Shown: piece by piece, positions 13,037 to 54,073 of the stretch | How positions within the stretch are numbered: position 1 is the first letter of the stretch | How the letters are laid out: each line of letters opens with the position of its first letter | Assembly (NCBI RefSeq): GCF_058153355.1 | Contig: NZ_CM177019.1 | Length of the DNA: 64,000 nucleotides | Reading direction: 5' to 3' (one strand) | Made by a program: the position numbers and the translations under genes | Notes under the pieces: model-generated | What the model was told of the DNA's origin: nothing | What the model saw: only the letters and a program-made list of their open reading frames with translations | Databases searched by the model: none

Positions 13037-14722
13037 TTGAAGAAGGTTTGGCTTAACCGTTATCCCGCGGACGTTCCGACGGAGATCAACCCTGACCGTT
13101 ATCAATCTCTGGTAGATATGTTTGAGCAGTCGGTCGCGCGCTACGCCGATCAACCCGCGTTTGTGAATATGGGGGAGGTGATGACCTTCCGCAAACTGGA
13201 AGAACGCAGTCGCGCGTTTGCCGCTTATTTGCAACAAGGGTTGGGACTGAAGAAAGGCGATCGCGTTGCGTTGATGATGCCTAATTTATTGCAATATCCG
13301 GTGGCGCTGTTTGGCATTTTGCGTGCCGGGATGATTGTCGTAAACGTTAACCCGTTGTATACCCCGCGTGAACTTGAGCATCAGCTTAACGATAGCGGCG
13401 CATCGGCGATTGTTATCGTGTCTAACTTTGCCCACACTCTGGAAAAAGTGGTTGATAAAACCGCCGTTCAGCACGTAATTCTGACCCGTATGGGCGATCA
13501 GCTATCCACGGCAAAAGGCACGGTAGTCAACTTCGTTGTTAAATACATCAAGCGTCTGGTGCCGAAATACCATCTGCCAGATGCCATCTCATTTCGCAGC
13601 GCACTGCATAACGGCTACCGGATGCAGTACGTCAAACCCGAACTGGTGCCAGAAGATTTAGCTTTCCTGCAATATACCGGCGGTACCACTGGTGTGGCGA
13701 AGGGCGCGATGCTGACTCACCGCAATATGCTGGCGAATCTGGAACAAGTTAACGCGACTTATGGGCCGCTGTTGCATCCGGGCAAAGAGCTGGTGGTGAC
13801 GGCACTGCCGCTGTATCACATTTTTGCGCTGACCATTAACTGCCTGCTGTTTATTGAACTGGGTGGGCAGAACTTGCTTATCACTAACCCGCGCGATATT
13901 CCGGGGTTGGTAAAAGAGTTAGCGAAATATCCGTTTACCGCGATAACCGGCGTTAACACCTTGTTCAATGCGTTGCTGAACAATAAAGAGTTCCAGCAGC
14001 TGGATTTCTCCAGTCTGCATCTTTCTGCAGGCGGTGGTATGCCTGTTCAACAAGTGGTGGCTGAACGTTGGGTGAAACTGACCGGACAGTATCTGCTGGA
14101 AGGTTATGGCCTGACCGAGTGTGCGCCGCTGGTCAGCGTTAACCCGTATGATATTGATTATCATAGTGGTAGCATCGGTTTGCCGGTGCCGTCGACGGAA
14201 GCCAAACTGGTGGATGATGATGATAACGAAGTACCACCGGGTCAACCGGGTGAGCTTTGTGTCAAAGGACCGCAGGTGATGCTGGGCTACTGGCAGCGTC
14301 CGGATGCTACCGATGAAATCATCAAAAATGGCTGGTTACACACCGGCGACATCGCGGTGATGGATGAAGAAGGATTCCTGCGCATTGTCGATCGTAAAAA
14401 AGACATGATTCTGGTTTCCGGTTTTAACGTCTATCCCAACGAGATTGAAGATGTCGTCATGCAGCATCCTGGCGTACAGGAAGTCGCGGCTGTTGGCGTA
14501 CCTTCCGGCTCCAGTGGTGAAGCGGTGAAAATCTTCGTTGTGAAAAAAGATCCATCGCTTACCGAAGAGTCACTGGTGACTTTTTGCCGCCGTCAGCTCA
14601 CGGGCTACAAAGTACCGAAGCTGGTAGAGTTTCGTGATGAGTTACCGAAATCTAACGTCGGCAAAATTTTGCGACGAGAATTACGTGACGAAGCGCGCGG
14701 CAAAGTGGACAATAAAGCCTGA
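13037..14722 (+). CDS. fadD: long-chain fatty acyl-CoA ligase
   Basis: ORF 12971-14722; start placed at TTG 13037 after SD GAGGTGAAG, giving 561 aa (M)[30 protein letters not shown]...; AMP-binding motif [18 protein letters not shown]. Confidence 0.93.
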
Positions 14723-14741
14723 GCGTTAAGTCAGTCGTCAG

Positions 14742-14767
14742 ACGCCGGTTAATCCGGCGTTTTTTTT
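14742..14767 (+). terminator. rho-independent terminator after fadD
   Basis: Hairpin ACGCCGG-TTAAT-CCGGCGT followed by T7 run, about 20 bp after the fadD stop. This may correspond to the SroD sRNA region of K-12, which I cannot confirm. Confidence 0.7.
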
Positions 14768-47823: not shown

Positions 47824-49779
47824 ATGCGGTTGTTTATTGCCGAAAAACCGAGTCTGGCGCGCGCCATTGCTGATGTCCTGCCCAAACCGCACCGGAAAGG
47901 CGATGGCTTTATCGAGTGCGGTAATGGCCAGGTGGTGACCTGGTGTATCGGTCACCTGCTTGAGCAGGCGCAGCCAGACGCCTACGACAGTCGCTATGCG
48001 CGCTGGAACCTGGCCGATCTCCCCATTGTCCCGGAAAAGTGGCAATTACAGCCACGACCCTCCGTGACCAAACAACTTAACGTCATCAAACGCTTTCTGC
48101 ATGAAGCCAGCGAAATCGTTCACGCCGGTGACCCGGACCGTGAAGGGCAATTGCTGGTAGATGAAGTGCTGGACTACCTGCAACTGGCACCAGAAAAGCG
48201 CCAGCAGGTACAGCGTTGTTTGATAAACGACCTGAACCCGCAGGCGGTTGAGCGGGCTATCGATCGTCTTCGCTCCAATAGCGAGTTTGTACCACTGTGC
48301 GTTTCTGCGCTGGCGCGAGCACGAGCCGACTGGTTATACGGCATCAATATGACCCGCGCGTACACCATTCTCGGTCGTAATGCGGGTTATCAGGGCGTGC
48401 TTTCCGTGGGACGCGTGCAGACGCCCGTGCTCGGGCTGGTGGTGCGCCGCGATGAAGAAATTGAAAACTTCGTGGCGAAAGACTTCTTTGAAGTCAAAGC
48501 GCATATCGTGACACCTGCCGATGAGCGGTTTACCGCTATCTGGCAACCGAGCGAAGCGTGTGAACCGTACCAGGATGAAGAAGGGCGCTTGTTACATCGT
48601 CCGCTGGCGGAGCATGTGGTCAACCGCATCAGCGGCCAACCGGCTATTGTCACCAGCTATAACGATAAACGGGAATCAGAATCCGCACCGCTGCCGTTTT
48701 CGCTTTCGGCGTTGCAGATTGAAGCGGCTAAACGCTTTGGTCTGAGTGCGCAGAACGTGCTTGATATCTGCCAGAAGTTGTACGAAACGCACAAGCTAAT
48801 CACTTATCCGCGTTCCGATTGTCGCTATCTGCCAGAAGAGCATTTTGCCGGACGCCACGCGGTGATGAATGCTATCGGCGTCCATGCGCCGGATCTGTTG
48901 CCGCAACCAGTGGTAGATCCAGATATACGCAACCGCTGTTGGGATGACAAAAAGGTCGATGCGCACCACGCCATCATCCCGACCGCGAGGAGTTCTGCCA
49001 TCAACCTGACGGAAAACGAGGCGAAGGTCTATAACCTGATTGCTCGTCAGTATTTGATGCAGTTCTGTCCGGACGCGGTGTTCCGCAAGTGTGTTATCGA
49101 ACTGGAAATAGCCAAAGGCAAATTTGTCGCTAAAGCCCGTTTTCTTGCTGAAGCAGGCTGGCGCACACTGTTAGGCAGCAAAGAGCGCGATGAAGAAAAC
49201 GACGGCACGCCACTGCCTGTGGTGGCGAAAGGCGATGAGTTGCTGTGTGAAAAAGGTGAAGTGGTAGAGCGGCAAACCCAGCCGCCGCGCCATTTTACCG
49301 ATGCAACACTGCTTTCGGCGATGACCGGGATCGCGCGCTTTGTGCAGGATAAAGATCTGAAAAAGATCCTTCGTGCCACCGATGGTCTGGGGACAGAAGC
49401 AACCCGTGCCGGGATTATTGAACTGCTGTTCAAGCGTGGCTTTCTGACCAAAAAAGGGCGCTATATCCACTCCACCGACGCCGGAAAAGCGTTATTCCAT
49501 TCACTGCCAGAAATGGCTACGCGACCGGACATGACCGCGCACTGGGAATCGGTGCTGACGCAAATCAGCGAAAAGCAGTGCCGCTATCAGGACTTTATGC
49601 AACCGTTGGTGGGGACGCTGTATCAGTTGATTGATCAGGCCAAACGTACGCCGGTGCGGCAGTTTCGCGGCATAGTGGCTCCAGATGGCGGAGAAGGAAA
49701 TAAGAAGACTTCACCCCGTAAGCGAGCAGCGAAAAAAAGCCCGCCATCAGCAGAGGCGGGCAGTGGAGTGATAATGTAA
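47824..49779 (+). CDS. topB: DNA topoisomerase III
   Basis: ORF 47767-49779; start at ATG 47824 ([47 protein letters not shown]...); Toprim and topoisomerase IA domains; 4 bp after the selD stop. Confidence 0.95.
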
Positions 49780-49799
49780 TGCTCTGATGCAGTCAGTTT

Positions 49800-52158
49800 G
49801 TCGGGTAGCAGCGATTCATTACTGTCTCGCCGCCCCCTAAGAACGGTACGTGCGAGTTTCCCCGCATACCGCTCAAGCCTTTATAAGCCTCCACCTTGTG
49901 GGAGACCAGCGTCATTACTATGTAGTTGTCGATGGCAGTTGGGATGGAGTAGGACTAAATTGCTCACATCATCGCTACCGCCAAGAGATTTCTTGAGCAA
50001 ATGATGAACATTCCATCCTGTATCGCGATTAATCGGTTGCTCACATAAAGGGCAGCGCGATCCTTGCCTTTTCCATATAGCGAGAATCCTTTTCTGCCCC
50101 TGTTGGGATTTCTTCCATGAGTAGTCCAGCCTTCTTTCGAAGTATGTTTCCCACTCGGGATCATATGGATTTGCCGTTCCCTTTATTTTTATATAGCGAT
50201 TAATATGGATGTCGCTGGCCCGGGACAGAACATATTTCCTACCCTCCGGATCGACTCCATAAAATCGACCATGACACATTTTTATTGTCGTGTGGTACTT
50301 TCGGAAGATCCATCTCCGGCCTTTGCCGGGATGTCTCCTTCTGCACCACTGCCAGATTTTGCGCCAGATTTGGTTGTCGACATAGTTAAATGTCTCTGCC
50401 GATGCTACATGTTGGTGATAGTTTGCCCACCCGGTGATGATTGGATTAAGCAGATTTATTAGCACCCATGCAGGAACCGTTCGGTTACCTTCAATAGTCT
50501 CTCTGATCTTGCTAAGAAATTGTTTAACGTTTTTCTTGGCTGGTCTGATTATGAGTTTTCTACCGAAGCGTCGGACGTGCTGCCCAAGGAAATCAAATCC
50601 GTCAGTAATGTGAGTGATGACCGTTTTCTCTTCGGATAACGTCAGCCCTCTTTCTGCAAGAAATGATTTCACCAACGGAAGAACATTCTCCTCCAGAAGT
50701 TCTTTCGACTTTCCGGAAATGATGAAATCATCAGCATACCGGACGAAGTGAACCTGATGTTTCCTGAATGTTTTTGAGCGTTTCGGACCAAAGCGATTTT
50801 GCAGCAGTCTTTCCAGTCCATCCAGGGCCATGTTTGCCAGAACTGGAGATATGATTCCTCCCTGGGGTGTACCCGAGAGAGTTTTGCTGAATATGCTTTT
50901 TTCGATGATCCCGGCTTTCAACCAATTACGGAGTATTTGCTTGTCCATAGGAATATTTTCAAGCAGCCACTCGTGGCTAATGTGTTCAAAGCATCCTTTA
51001 ATATCGCCTTCCAGAACCCATTTCGAGGCGTTCCGGGAACTATACATATTACATACCTGTTGAATGGCGTCAGCCGTACATCGCGCTGGTCTGAAACCAT
51101 AACTGTTGTGATCTGCATTAGTTTCCGATACAGGCTCCAATCCCAGCAGATGCAGGGCCTGCATTGCCCTGTCAAGCATGACGGGGATTCCTAATGGTCT
51201 TTTCTTGCCATTAGATTTGGGTATAAAAACTCTTTTTAGCGGTAGGGGCTTGTACCCTTTTCGCCTGAGTTTGAATATCGCTTCCCATTTTGATTCTGGA
51301 GTACTCCAGATTTGACCATCAACTCCGGGGGTTTTACGCCCGCTATTTTCCGTAACTCGTTTCACCGCCAGTGCTCTGGCGCTGAATGAGCGAACCAGCA
51401 ATCGTTGCAATCTACCGACTGTACGCCATTGCTGGTTACATGCCGCCTTTGCGATTCTTGTCTGTATGGTTTTAACGTGTTGATGGCATTTCTTCCAGTT
51501 AATGGAATGCCAACCTTTTCCGTTGATGACCGCAGTTACATTGTTAGATGTAATTTTCATACATGTCATCCAAAGAAACCTTCGCAGATGTTTCGCAATT
51601 AAAGACCAGATGGAAGTCAGCACGGTTTCCCGTTAAGGCAAATATTGAACCTCTATCCGCACGATTACAGTCCGGCTTTCGCTTTTTCCATCCTCCTTTA
51701 CCCGCATTCTCATCAGTTTGCCTTACGGTGCCCCTGCCACTAGGGCGAGAATTCGGGCTTACCAAGTTCCGACCAACATACAAAGAACGGGTTAGGTTCT
51801 GTCTATCCGCCGGGGGAGTTATTGTCCATGTATTCCCACTACGAACAGGAATAGCCTTACCCCTTACCTTTTGGTGCAAGCCTATCAGCATCTTTGGCTC
51901 GTTCTCTGTTACGACGTTTAACGACAGTTCACTATGTTAACCATACCGCCCAGCCTAGCGCTCTCGCCGCATGATGCTTGTAGCGATCAGGTTTTCTCAC
52001 GATTAACTGAAGCAATATTTGCTAAGCTACATTGTCCCAAGGGCTTCAGACAGAGCCGTTACCAGCTTTGCCTGCCTCAGTAGGCTACAACTAATGGAAT
52101 AGTTGGTTTTATATAAATAATTTATCAAAACAATATGTTGGACGACTTCTTGTCGCAC
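49800..52158 (-). mobile_element. group II intron, full length with intact intron-encoded protein (boundaries approximate, +/- 10 bp)
   Basis: Minus strand: 5' end GTGCGACAAG... at 52158; about 535 nt of domains I-III; ORF in domain IV (49881-51560); canonical 34-nt domain V GAGCGGTATGCGGGGAAACTCGCACGTACCGTTC at 49842-49875 (AGC triad, GAAA tetraloop) 6 nt after the ORF stop; short domain VI ending about 49800. Confidence 0.85.
49881..51560 (-). CDS. group II intron reverse transcriptase/maturase with C-terminal HNH endonuclease domain
   Basis: ORF 49881-51623; likely start MKITSNNV... at ATG 51558-51560; RT block with YADD catalytic motif (VHFVRYADDFIISG), maturase X region, and HNH/En motif (CPLCEQP...WNVHHLLKKSLGGSDDVSNLVLLHPNCHRQLH). 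Confidence 0.88.
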   Translation of the reverse strand: MKITSNNVTAVINGKGWHSINWKKCHQHVKTIQTRIAKAACNQQWRTVGRLQRLLVRSFSARALAVKRVTENSGRKTPGVDGQIWSTPESKWEAIFKLRRKGYKPLPLKRVFIPKSNGKKRPLGIPVMLDRAMQALHLLGLEPVSETNADHNSYGFRPARCTADAIQQVCNMYSSRNASKWVLEGDIKGCFEHISHEWLLENIPMDKQILRNWLKAGIIEKSIFSKTLSGTPQGGIISPVLANMALDGLERLLQNRFGPKRSKTFRKHQVHFVRYADDFIISGKSKELLEENVLPLVKSFLAERGLTLSEEKTVITHITDGFDFLGQHVRRFGRKLIIRPAKKNVKQFLSKIRETIEGNRTVPAWVLINLLNPIITGWANYHQHVASAETFNYVDNQIWRKIWQWCRRRHPGKGRRWIFRKYHTTIKMCHGRFYGVDPEGRKYVLSRASDIHINRYIKIKGTANPYDPEWETYFERRLDYSWKKSQQGQKRILAIWKRQGSRCPLCEQPINRDTGWNVHHLLKKSLGGSDDVSNLVLLHPNCHRQLHSNDAGLPQGGGL

Positions 52159-52160
52159 TC

Positions 52161-52195
52161 GTAGGCCAGATAAGGCGTTCACGCCGCATCTGGCA
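52161..52195. repeat. REP (repetitive extragenic palindrome) element downstream of gdhA
   Basis: GTAGGCCAGATAAGGCGTTCACGCCGCATCTGGCA matches the E. coli REP consensus family (GCCGGATGCGGCGTGAACGCCTTATCCGGCCTAC) with a G-to-A variant in each arm. Confidence 0.75.
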
Positions 52196-52221
52196 TAAAC
52201 GCCTGAAACGGCGCTAATGAC

Positions 52222-53565
52222 TTAAATCACCCCCTGCGCCAGCATCGCATCGGCAACCTTCACAAAACCGGCAATGTTCGCGCCCTGCACGTAGTTGGTT
52301 TGCTCACCTTCACCACCATGCTCAACACAGGCATGGTGGATATCCAGCATGATGTGATGCAAACGTGCGTCAACTTTCTCGGCTTTCCAGCCCAGGCGCG
52401 CAGCGTTTTGCGCCATTTCCAGGCCGGATGTAGCTACGCCACCAGCATTAGCCGCTTTACCCGGTGCAAACAGTACGCCTGCCTGCTGGAACAGTTCAGT
52501 CGCTTCGATGGTGGTCGGCATATTTGCCCCTTCGGCGACGGCTTTAACGCCATTGGCGATAAGCTGATGCGCGGCGTCTACATCCAGTTCGTTCTGGGTG
52601 GCGCAAGGCAGGGCGATATCAACCGGTACAGACCACGGCTGTTGGCCTTCGAGATAGACCAGGCCAAATTCTTTGGCGTAATCTGCCACTCGACCATCGC
52701 GGCTGGCTTTGATTTCGATAAGACGTGCCAGTTTCTCTTTAGTGAATCCGCTTTCATCAACGACAGTGCCACTGGAATCTGACGCAGTAATCACACGGGC
52801 ACCAAATTCCATCGCTTTTTCGATAGCGTACTGAGCGACGTTGCCGGAGCCAGAAACGGAAACGCGCATCCCTTCAAAACCCATACCGTGGCGTTTTAGC
52901 ATTGCTTCTGTGAAATAAACCAGACCGTAGCCGGTTGCTTCCGGGCGAATAAGACTGCCGCCAAAAGAAAGCCCCTTACCGGTGAAGACGCAGGCGGTAT
53001 TGTTGGAGAGCTTTTTCATCATCCCCGCCATAAAGCCGACTTCACGACCACCAACGCCGATATCGCCCGCCGGAACGTCGGTATCTGCGCCCAGGTGGCG
53101 ATACAGTTCAGTCATTAGCGCCTGGCAGAACCGCATCACTTCGCCTTCGCTTTTCCCTTTCGGGTCGAAATCGCTGCCGCCTTTACCACCGCCCATTGGC
53201 AGAGTTGTCAGGGCATTTTTGAAGGTTTGTTCAAAGCCGAGGAATTTGAGAATGGAGAGGTTTACCGACGGATGGAAGCGCATACCACCTTTGTACGGGC
53301 CGATGGCGGAGCTGAACTGCACGCGCCATGCACGGTTGACCTGCACCTGGTTGCGATCGTCAACCCATACCACGCGAAACTGGATCACGCGCTCCGGCTC
53401 AACCAAGCGCTCCAGTAATGACATTTGGCGATATTTTGGATTTTGTTCAAGAAAAGGCCAGAGTGTGGTCATTACTTCACGAACGGCTTGCGCGAACTCG
53501 GTTTGATTCGGGTCGCGCTTTTGGACATGGTTGAGGAATGACTCCAGAGAATATGTCTGATCCAT
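52222..53565 (-). CDS. gdhA: NADP-specific glutamate dehydrogenase
   Basis: 447-aa ORF MDQTYSLESFLNHVQKRDPNQTEFAQAVREVMTTLWPFLEQNPKYRQ...; matches E. coli GdhA. Confidence 0.97.
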   Translation of the reverse strand: MDQTYSLESFLNHVQKRDPNQTEFAQAVREVMTTLWPFLEQNPKYRQMSLLERLVEPERVIQFRVVWVDDRNQVQVNRAWRVQFSSAIGPYKGGMRFHPSVNLSILKFLGFEQTFKNALTTLPMGGGKGGSDFDPKGKSEGEVMRFCQALMTELYRHLGADTDVPAGDIGVGGREVGFMAGMMKKLSNNTACVFTGKGLSFGGSLIRPEATGYGLVYFTEAMLKRHGMGFEGMRVSVSGSGNVAQYAIEKAMEFGARVITASDSSGTVVDESGFTKEKLARLIEIKASRDGRVADYAKEFGLVYLEGQQPWSVPVDIALPCATQNELDVDAAHQLIANGVKAVAEGANMPTTIEATELFQQAGVLFAPGKAANAGGVATSGLEMAQNAARLGWKAEKVDARLHHIMLDIHHACVEHGGEGEQTNYVQGANIAGFVKVADAMLAQGVI

Positions 53566-53800
53566 AGATATAAAACCCTTATATATTAATACGATTATGC
53601 TTATGTTGTTTATGTCATGTGCTTTTGCAGTTTTCGACTATACCATCAAGAATGTGACGGTAAGCAAGAAAAAAATGACTCACGAAAGCAAATTAATAAC
53701 GGGAGAAATCTCATAACCAAAAGCGATAACTCAGACGCTAAAGTTTTGCCGCCAGGCTACCGTTATCAGTAGCAGAGACAAAAACGTTAAGGAGTTCCCT

Positions 53801-54073
53801 GTGAGTCGAGCATTGTTCGCCCTAGCATTGGCATTTCCATTCATTGCACTGGCTAACCCGCATTATCGTCCGGACGTGGAGGTGAACGTACCGCCAGAAG
53901 TGTTCAGTTCAGGCGGGCAGTCAGCGCAGCCCTGTACTCAGTGCTGCGTTTATCAGGATAAAAATTATTCTGAAGGGGCGGTAATTAAAGCCGAAGGAAT
54001 ACTCCTGCAATGCCAGCGGGATGACAAAACCCTTAGCACTAATCCGCTGGTCTGGCGGCGCGTAAAGCCATAA
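53801..54073 (+). CDS. ynjH: DUF1496 secreted protein
   Basis: 90-aa ORF with signal peptide (MSRALFALALAFPFIALA); divergent from gdhA; 3' end overlaps nudG by 35 bp. Confidence 0.85.
   Translation: MSRALFALALAFPFIALANPHYRPDVEVNVPPEVFSSGGQSAQPCTQCCVYQDKNYSEGAVIKAEGILLQCQRDDKTLSTNPLVWRRVKP

Follow-up and report, generated by a model that had tools for sequence, protein, structure and literature searches.

A group II intron in a REP element of an Escherichia coli chromosome and its probable origin from a plasmid toxin gene

How did a mobile group II intron come to lie in the short spacer between gdhA and topB of an Escherichia coli chromosome? In this species, group II introns are as a rule found only in insertion sequences and on plasmids, and activity has been demonstrated for few of them. 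The intron considered here was found in a stretch of 64,000 nucleotides of contig NZ_CM177019.1 (assembly GCF_058153355.1), referred to below as the window; it is native to E. coli and encodes an endonuclease domain, and the sequences themselves record how it has spread. We consider it very probable that the ribonucleoprotein (RNP) of an intron borne in a plasmid srnB-like toxin gene reverse-spliced into a repetitive extragenic palindromic (REP) element of the gdhA-topB spacer, and that the copy left there is intact and able to move.

The intron and its empty site

The intron occupies positions 49800-52158 of the minus strand (2,359 nt), starting with GUGCGAC from 52158 and ending in ...CUACCCGAC at 49800 (termini GUGCGACAAG…GCUGCUACCCGAC); GUGCG at 52158-52154 and ...GAC at 49802-49800 satisfy the boundary consensus of group II introns (5' GUGYG, 3' AY). 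The flanks in the window are 99.1% identical to E. coli strains such as 2013C-4282, in which they are contiguous across an empty site (…GAACGCCTTATCTGGCCTACGA/AAACTGACTGCATCAG…; here and below a slash marks the insertion point). Excising 49800-52158 restores this empty site (...CTTATCTGGCCTACGA/AAACTGAC...) with neither duplication nor deletion of target sequence, and an insertion that is exact to the nucleotide in this way is the expected product of reverse splicing. The comparison with intron-less E. coli genomes that a preliminary description of the window had proposed confirms the boundaries to the nucleotide.

Both ends of the ribozyme are recognisable, and together with the restored empty site they identify a complete intron. 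In an Rfam covariance scan of 48000-54000, the domain 1 (D1) segment at 51959-52106 on the minus strand matched RF02012 (group-II-D1D4-7) over the full model, 1-151, with 112.5 bits and E = 7e-24 (gathering score 34), and domains V and VI (D5 and D6) at 49800-49876 matched RF00029 over its full length with 65.5 bits (gathering score 40). No further intron pieces emerged from a scan across the whole window. Domain 5 (GAGCGGUAUGCGGGGAAACUCGCACGUACCGUUC; 49841-49874, minus strand), a helix with the AGC triad and a 2-nt bulge, is invariant in all ten aligned family members, and its string is found once in the window against a chance expectation of 0. Domain 6 and the 3' end follow at 49800-49838 on the same strand in the RF00029 alignment; the bulged branch-point A, assigned by inspection, is the seventh nucleotide from the 3' end (49806), and the D6 stem shows compensatory changes between E. 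coli and Salmonella copies. An RNAalifold consensus of the 5' 600 nt of nine copies, including the characterised E. coli intron EcI5, comprised 176 pairs, 55 of them with double changes, and had a covariation term of -12.2 kcal/mol.

Domain 4 holds the open reading frame (ORF) of the intron-encoded protein (IEP), at 49881-51569 on the minus strand, which was assigned from Pfam, TIGR04416 and motif alignments. Pfam matches cover RVT_N, RVT_1, GIIM and HNH, TIGR04416 was matched at 369.5 bits (cut-off 300), and the YADD and HNH motifs line up with those of EcI5 and of chain C of PDB 6ME0. The stop codon is TAA at 49881-49883. Of the two candidate starts, ATG 51569 gives 562 aa, as in NCBI protein HFG3511611.1, and ATG 51560 gives 559 aa, as PGAP annotates the plasmid copies; the longest open frame, from GTG 51623, has 580 codons and no internal stop. 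PGAP labels such ORFs ltrA. Among about 15 billion proteins, the IEP cluster at 90% identity has 193 members, and dN/dS values of 0.06-0.15 between the ORF and its relatives point to purifying selection on the IEP family.

The preliminary description had seen a full-length group II intron on the minus strand at 49800-52158, and its features all lie where it had put them, with pairing of the intron to its flanks now added. It was right about the intact reverse-transcriptase (RT)-maturase-HNH reading frame and about the domain V string 6 nt after the stop, and the covariance-model check that it had suggested, with RF00029, gave the score above. Its ORF of 560 aa is intact as claimed, but the likely starts give 562 or 559 aa, and the RNA 5' of the ORF amounts to about 590-598 nt instead of the 535 nt or so first given. 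It had also named the alternative that would undo the intron reading, an RT of retron or diversity-generating-retroelement (DGR) type, to which a defence-type RT may be added. Weak, sub-threshold matches to retron and Drt models do occur, but these reach 19-51 bits against cut-offs of 200-600, whereas the cut-off of TIGR04416 is passed (369.5 against 300) and D1 and D5/D6 ribozyme matches flank the ORF; we regard this alternative as excluded.

Since the nearest characterised proteins are those of EcI5 and Th.e.I3, and the D1 family in Rfam is shared, we file the element, from its sequence, as an EcI5-like mobile group II intron of IIB1/CL1 (chloroplast-like-1) type that is distinct from EcI5. 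Both EcI5 and Th.e.I3/TeI4h are IIB1 introns with CL1 reverse transcriptases (PMC8643678). EcI5, from plasmid pO157, shares with the window intron the host species, a plasmid origin and the order RT-X-D-HNH; its D1 is alignable, with EBS2, the second exon-binding site (ACCAG at 253-257 in EcI5), and the adjoining spacer in equivalent positions, and it matches RF02012 at 133 bits as compared with 112 bits here. We nonetheless rejected the possibility that the window intron is a copy of EcI5. The proteins are only 53% identical, megablast finds no similarity between the two DNAs and leaves pO157 records unmatched, and the introns differ in EBS1, EBS2 and the 5' exon. EcI5, whose EBS2 is experimentally defined and which is highly mobile in E. 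coli by experiment (PMC8643678), homes on pO157 to a site with C-18, C-17, A-15 and A-14, whereas the window intron and its relatives occupy a Hok-family toxin gene or a REP. Th.e.I3/TeI4h of Thermosynechococcus (PDB 6ME0/6MEC) is the best relative of solved structure (627 bits over residues 15-551, domains colinear), but it belongs to a thermophilic cyanobacterium, has another target and shows only distant nucleotide similarity. An intron with an intact ribozyme and an RT-maturase-HNH protein is a well-known kind of element.

Targets in Hok-family toxin genes

The plasmid database PLSDB holds 20 full-length copies of the intron, at 77-99.6% identity, in E. coli, E. albertii, Salmonella, Citrobacter and Enterobacter. 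Flanks were examined for nine of these plasmid copies; in eight of the nine, a toxin gene of the Hok/Gef family is split at one shared codon (…AYE/), which lies 13 nt ahead of the stop. Those conserved '...AYE' codons, close to the 3' terminus of hok and srnB-like genes on F-type plasmids, are the home of the family. Free srnB-like targets occur in 2,738 plasmids of PLSDB, the F plasmid among them, so occupancy is just a fraction of a percent.

Two types of plasmid target can be distinguished, and the intron changes with them. At srnB-like targets the 5' exon ends …CUCUGGCCUACGA/ and the intron carries EBS1 UCGUAG and EBS2 CAGAG; at hok-type targets the 5' exon ends …UUCAUGGCUUACGA/ and the intron carries EBS1 UCGUAA and EBS2 CAUGA(A). 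Across an alignment of ten sites, eight copies match a G or A in EBS1 with C or U, respectively, at position -6 of the exon, and the other two, at hok sites, form G.U; EBS2 CAGAG versus CAUGA(A) likewise covaries across plasmid copies with its intron-binding site IBS2, CUCUG versus (U)UCAUG. This covariation with the targets identifies the two exon-binding sites of the window copy, both of them on the minus strand and of the srnB type. EBS1 UCGUAG (intron nt 315-320; 51839-51844) lies in the loop of a hairpin that is retained in the RNAalifold consensus and is the perfect complement of CUACGA in the 5' exon. EBS2 CAGAG (intron nt 251-255; 51904-51908) occupies a position homologous to EBS2 of EcI5 and adjoins a 3-nt spacer, UAA (51909-51911), the middle A of which (51910) is a putative EBS2a. 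Position +1 of the 3' exon is A at all ten aligned sites and at the two further chromosomal sites described below, next to rsmC and gsk; in the window it is at 49799 on the minus strand and is a putative IBS3. The EBS2 loop aligns with that of EcI5; the predicted EBS2a-IBS2a pair is not Watson-Crick at the plasmid sites.

The family tolerates near-cognate sites. Hok-type copies (the A variant) also occur at sites that resemble the target but lie outside hok, namely on a plasmid (L006, 1401-1500, …TCATGGCTTTCGA/) and in metagenome or ENA sequences (L019, 1960-1997, …TTGATGGCTTACGA/; L143, 1420-1446, …TCATGGTTAACGA/). In a metagenome scan, five loci were recovered, each of which belongs to the hok-type (A-variant) lineage, and one non-hok site besides; the scan yielded no extra REP sites.

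Several side observations concern the plasmid copies. Interrupted type I toxin genes of the Hok/Gef family are seen at loci L001, L002, L005, L007-L010, L020, L142 and L158, and the Hok proteins annotated at plasmid loci run on into the intron. The variant closest to the window copy in PLSDB (L004, protein P0004) has a premature stop five codons before the usual end of the IEP, giving 557 aa; as this variant is found at plasmid and chromosomal sites, the last residues of the IEP seem dispensable. A distant copy on an Enterobacter plasmid (L010, 2090-3780), at 77% identity, is a decayed member of the family: its ORF is frameshifted, contains many stops and is not annotated as ltrA. Expression of the toxin, or folding of the 3' end of its mRNA, might depend on splicing.

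REP elements as recurrent insertion sites

In the window the 5' exon is a REP element (UGCCAGAUGCGGCGUGAACGCCUUAUCUGGCCUACGA; 52159-52195, minus strand), recognised from copies of a 38-mer and from a weak naRNA4/REP match in Rfam. Within it lie IBS1 (52159-52164) and IBS2 (52167-52171), both on the minus strand. The REP target AUCUGGCCUACGA/A and the srnB target CUCUGGCCUACGA/A share the A at +1, and over positions -12 to +1 the 3' end of the REP, ATCTGGCCTACGA/A, is the same as the srnB target CTCTGGCCTACGA/A. At the REP site EBS1 pairs at six of six positions and EBS2 at four of five, with an A.G mismatch at -13. Targets of this kind (REP target string CTTATCTGGCCTACGAA) are plentiful: each E. 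coli chromosome has at least 40 places that resemble the 38-mer (TGCCAGATGCGGCGTGAACGCCTTATCTGGCCTACGA+A), and 4,872 records contain it exactly. A search for the 14-mer ATCTGGCCTACGAA in species-representative genomes gave, among the matches listed, chance matches in unrelated phyla and is of no use for REP counts.

Insertion 6 nt after the REP stem is reminiscent of group IIC introns, which have a compact D1 and insert a few nucleotides downstream of terminator hairpins in intergenic regions. IIC introns lack EBS2 and the endonuclease (En) domain and recognise the hairpin itself (PMC8643678). The window intron has an HNH domain, an EBS2 that covaries with its target, and a D1 of IIB type, and we rejected a IIC identity. 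Its match to the REP is accounted for by a linear sequence that mimics the srnB target.

Near-identical copies of the intron lie at other sites. The exact IEP of the window is encoded on a contig of NCBI assembly GCA_043012465.1, after traX, finO, hha and a Hok/Gef gene; the intron there has an srnB-type 5' exon and shows no difference from the window copy (100% identity) in the 2,333 nt that are available. It is also encoded, again exactly, on Logan contig SRR31800506 (L013, 1-2400), in an intron that differs from the window copy by 1 nt, with a 5' exon ending TCTGGCCTACGA/ and a 3' exon next to rsmC. This second chromosomal insertion lies between the leu-tRNA cluster and rsmC, at the equivalent position of a different REP copy, and its empty site is found in strain KE55 (L021, 1470-1510; …GCGTCTTATCTGGCCTACGA/AGGGCTAACG…). 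In two draft assemblies from NCBI, a third REP, located between ybaL and gsk, is occupied after …GCCTTATCTGGCCTACGA/ by a variant of 99.6% identity that matches plasmid pRHB33-C08_2 (L149 and L150, 2860-2915 and 5260-5300; empty site L168, 2001-2038); this site is empty and perfect in O157:H7 and thousands of other genomes. All three insertions are at CTTATCTGGCCTACGA/A, at the same nucleotide, and the junctions of occupied REP sites read GGCCTACGA/GTGCGACAAGAAG and GCTACCCGAC/N20. Such near-identity between sites indicates that the lineage has been active recently and that insertion into REPs is recurrent. The near-identical copies in a plasmid srnB-like gene and on chromosomes, together with the low dN/dS, also strengthen the earlier suggestion that the intron is probably still competent for retrohoming. 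Copies 0-1 nt apart are present at four or more distinct sites, which is indirect evidence for splicing and retromobility.

One contig, L151 (GCA_042204225.1, 2780-5300), joins an srnB 5' flank, the intron and a gsk-aes-hemH 3' flank. It represents either an assembler path across the repeated intron or a real recombination between plasmid and chromosomal copies. Intron-only contigs occur in at least 18 assemblies, and with the chimeric contig they fit several copies per genome. Since a repeat can confuse assemblers and a plasmid/chromosome chimera does exist in one draft assembly, the chromosomal location in the window could in principle be an artefact in which a plasmid-borne intron was mis-joined. 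Such an origin is very improbable: each flank in the window is chromosomal, and the two are contiguous in empty-site genomes; a mis-join cannot insert an intron so cleanly that the junctions coincide with its two ends; and equivalent junctions are found in independent assemblies at other REPs.

The intron is rare. A chromosomal copy is present in none of 5,426 complete E. coli genomes, and only two plasmids in that set carry the intron, at 97.2% identity. The 36-nt 5' end of the intron had no match in 100,044 species-representative genomes, a result that has no bearing on insertion sites. Because the family resides in Hok-family genes across genera and the chromosomal copies are near-identical and sporadic, transfer from plasmid to chromosome is the favoured direction.

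Under this origin, a donor copy in a plasmid srnB-like gene would be transcribed, and IEP-assisted splicing of its RNA would yield a lariat RNP. EBS1, EBS2 and EBS3 would then recognise the top DNA strand of the REP between gdhA and topB, and the intron RNA would reverse-splice into its 3' end; the bottom strand would be cleaved by the HNH domain, or a replication primer would be used, and cDNA synthesis by the intron reverse transcriptase followed by repair would fix the insertion. The steps from transcription to repair follow established group II intron biology. The copy in the window would be read through from gdhA and could splice and move again.

Is the REP an occasional accident for this intron, or a second target? 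As the distal and 3'-exon positions are not conserved between the srnB gene and the REP, the REP insertions suggest low-frequency, retrotransposition-like events rather than efficient retrohoming. Alternatively, REPs of the CTTATCTGGCCTACGA/A subtype might form a second genuine class of homing site, with a sub-lineage shifting or expanding from the plasmid toxin gene to chromosomal repeats. Three independent REP copies occupied at exactly the same nucleotide, all of them CTTATCTGGCCTACGA/A, speak for such a class, as does the putative EBS2a (the A of the UAA spacer, by EcI5 homology), which would pair with T-14 in the REPs and fail to pair with A-14 in srnB (PMC8643678). This EBS2a is assigned by homology only, and it misfits the hok-type copies too, forming only a G.T at hok sites. 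Moreover, only three sites were found, all in rare isolates; free targets are near-universal, yet none of them is occupied in a complete genome; and an srnB-borne copy in E. albertii has the same EBS sequences, so that no REP-specific change is involved. We view a second homing-site class as a tentative possibility, and the less probable of the two.

Activity and surroundings of the gdhA-topB copy

Several observations weigh against reverse splicing of a plasmid-borne intron into this REP and against continuing mobility of the copy. The REP mismatches EBS2 at -13 and has almost nothing in common with srnB between -14 and -25 or between +2 and +10, and in EcI5 the protein recognises DNA positions in the distal 5' and 3'-exon regions (PMC8643678); with an EBS2 mismatch and unlike protein-contact regions, the REP should be a poor canonical target for retrohoming. 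An exact, free 38-nt REP target exists in about 90% of complete E. coli genomes and is occupied in none, which means that insertion is rare or that the lineage is very young. The window contains no plasmid sequence and so shows no donor for this strain. Activity of the intron is inferred from near-identical copies. There is no convincing promoter directly upstream of the intron, and at intron nt 178 one of the D1 hairpins of the sub-lineage contains an A.C mismatch.

The last two points bear on whether the copy still works. A consensus scan found no convincing promoter directly upstream, only one weak match at 51569-51540, over the start of the ORF. The only terminator-like site that pattern matching gives on the intron strand, a hairpin with a U-run, is at 49754-49731, downstream of the intron and within the 3'-terminal part of the coding sequence of the convergent gene topB. 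Because the intron lies in sense orientation between the gdhA stop and REP on one side and this hairpin on the other, it is probably located in the 3' untranslated region (UTR) of gdhA and transcribed by read-through from that gene. The mismatch arises from a G-to-A change at window position 51981, by which a conserved G-C pair is lost. Decay peculiar to the window copy was considered and rejected as its cause, the variant being common to the plasmid copy and the other chromosomal copies of the sub-lineage; as all recently moved copies have it, it is not a sign of decay and is evidently tolerated.

It would nevertheless be conceivable that the window copy, for all its complete structure, has become inert at this place, a relic that has ceased to be transcribed, to splice and to move. 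The promoter scan and the D1 mismatch could both be read in this way, and the REP hairpin just upstream could block read-through and sequester IBS2. But the ORF is intact and identical to that of copies at other sites, the A.C variant is shared by every copy that has recently moved, and co-transcription is favoured by the place of the intron, in sense orientation after gdhA and before the one terminator-like site. We therefore judge a relic to be unlikely, and continue to prefer a copy that is intact and able to move.

If REPs of this subtype do serve as genuine, recurrent landing sites, a IIB retroelement would have gained a selectively neutral target that is present in many copies in almost all E. 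coli genomes, and the window would offer a natural example of a plasmid-confined group II intron starting to colonise the chromosome. To our knowledge, this would also be the first case in E. coli of a link between a group II intron and REPs. We found no literature that links group II introns with REPs or describes this intron or a Hok-family homing site, subscription-only papers and the Zimmerly intron database lying outside the search. REPs are likewise used as recurrent, presumably neutral chromosomal landing sites by REP-targeting insertion sequences (PMC1525189), but those are DNA transposons with transposases, whereas the window intron targets DNA through RNA-DNA base pairing. The system is a tractable natural case of target mimicry that lets a retroelement leave its home site and proliferate in the chromosome, and as such bears on intron proliferation generally. 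The intron is also a candidate scaffold for gene-targeting vectors beside EcI5, and homing into hok/srnB genes of post-segregational killing raises the question of whether splicing controls toxin expression. For the strain itself the practical consequence is probably small, since the insertion is intergenic.

The neighbouring genes were assigned from their ORFs and from the annotation of genomes, in the case of gdhA the matching empty-site genome. Upstream of the intron and in the same orientation, gdhA occupies 52222-53565 of the minus strand, its stop codon (52222-52224) being 63 nt from the 5' end of the intron; topB, with selD on the plus strand, is convergent (47824-49779) and ends (stop 49777-49779) 20 nt from the 3' end of the intron, close to the 20 bp or so given by the preliminary description. 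That description had further stated that the intron is not inside a gene, which holds for coding sequence but probably not for the gdhA transcript, and was right that K-12 has no intron here. It was silent on the REP insertion site, the plasmid Hok-family home and the recurrence of REP insertion.

The spacer also differs between lineages. In K-12, ynjI separates gdhA from topB, and the REP that follows gdhA is another one (…TTATCAGGCCTACAAA…; L011, 2716-3999); the lineage of the window has no ynjI there, and its spacer (49780-52221) would measure just 83 bp if the intron were removed. By the K-12 map, the gdhA-topB and rsmC insertions presumably have opposite polarity relative to fork movement, from which we draw no conclusion; GC skew in the window is weak. 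Elsewhere in the window, an Rfam match to the small RNA sroD (14681-14766, plus strand, 115 bits) has no relation to the intron.

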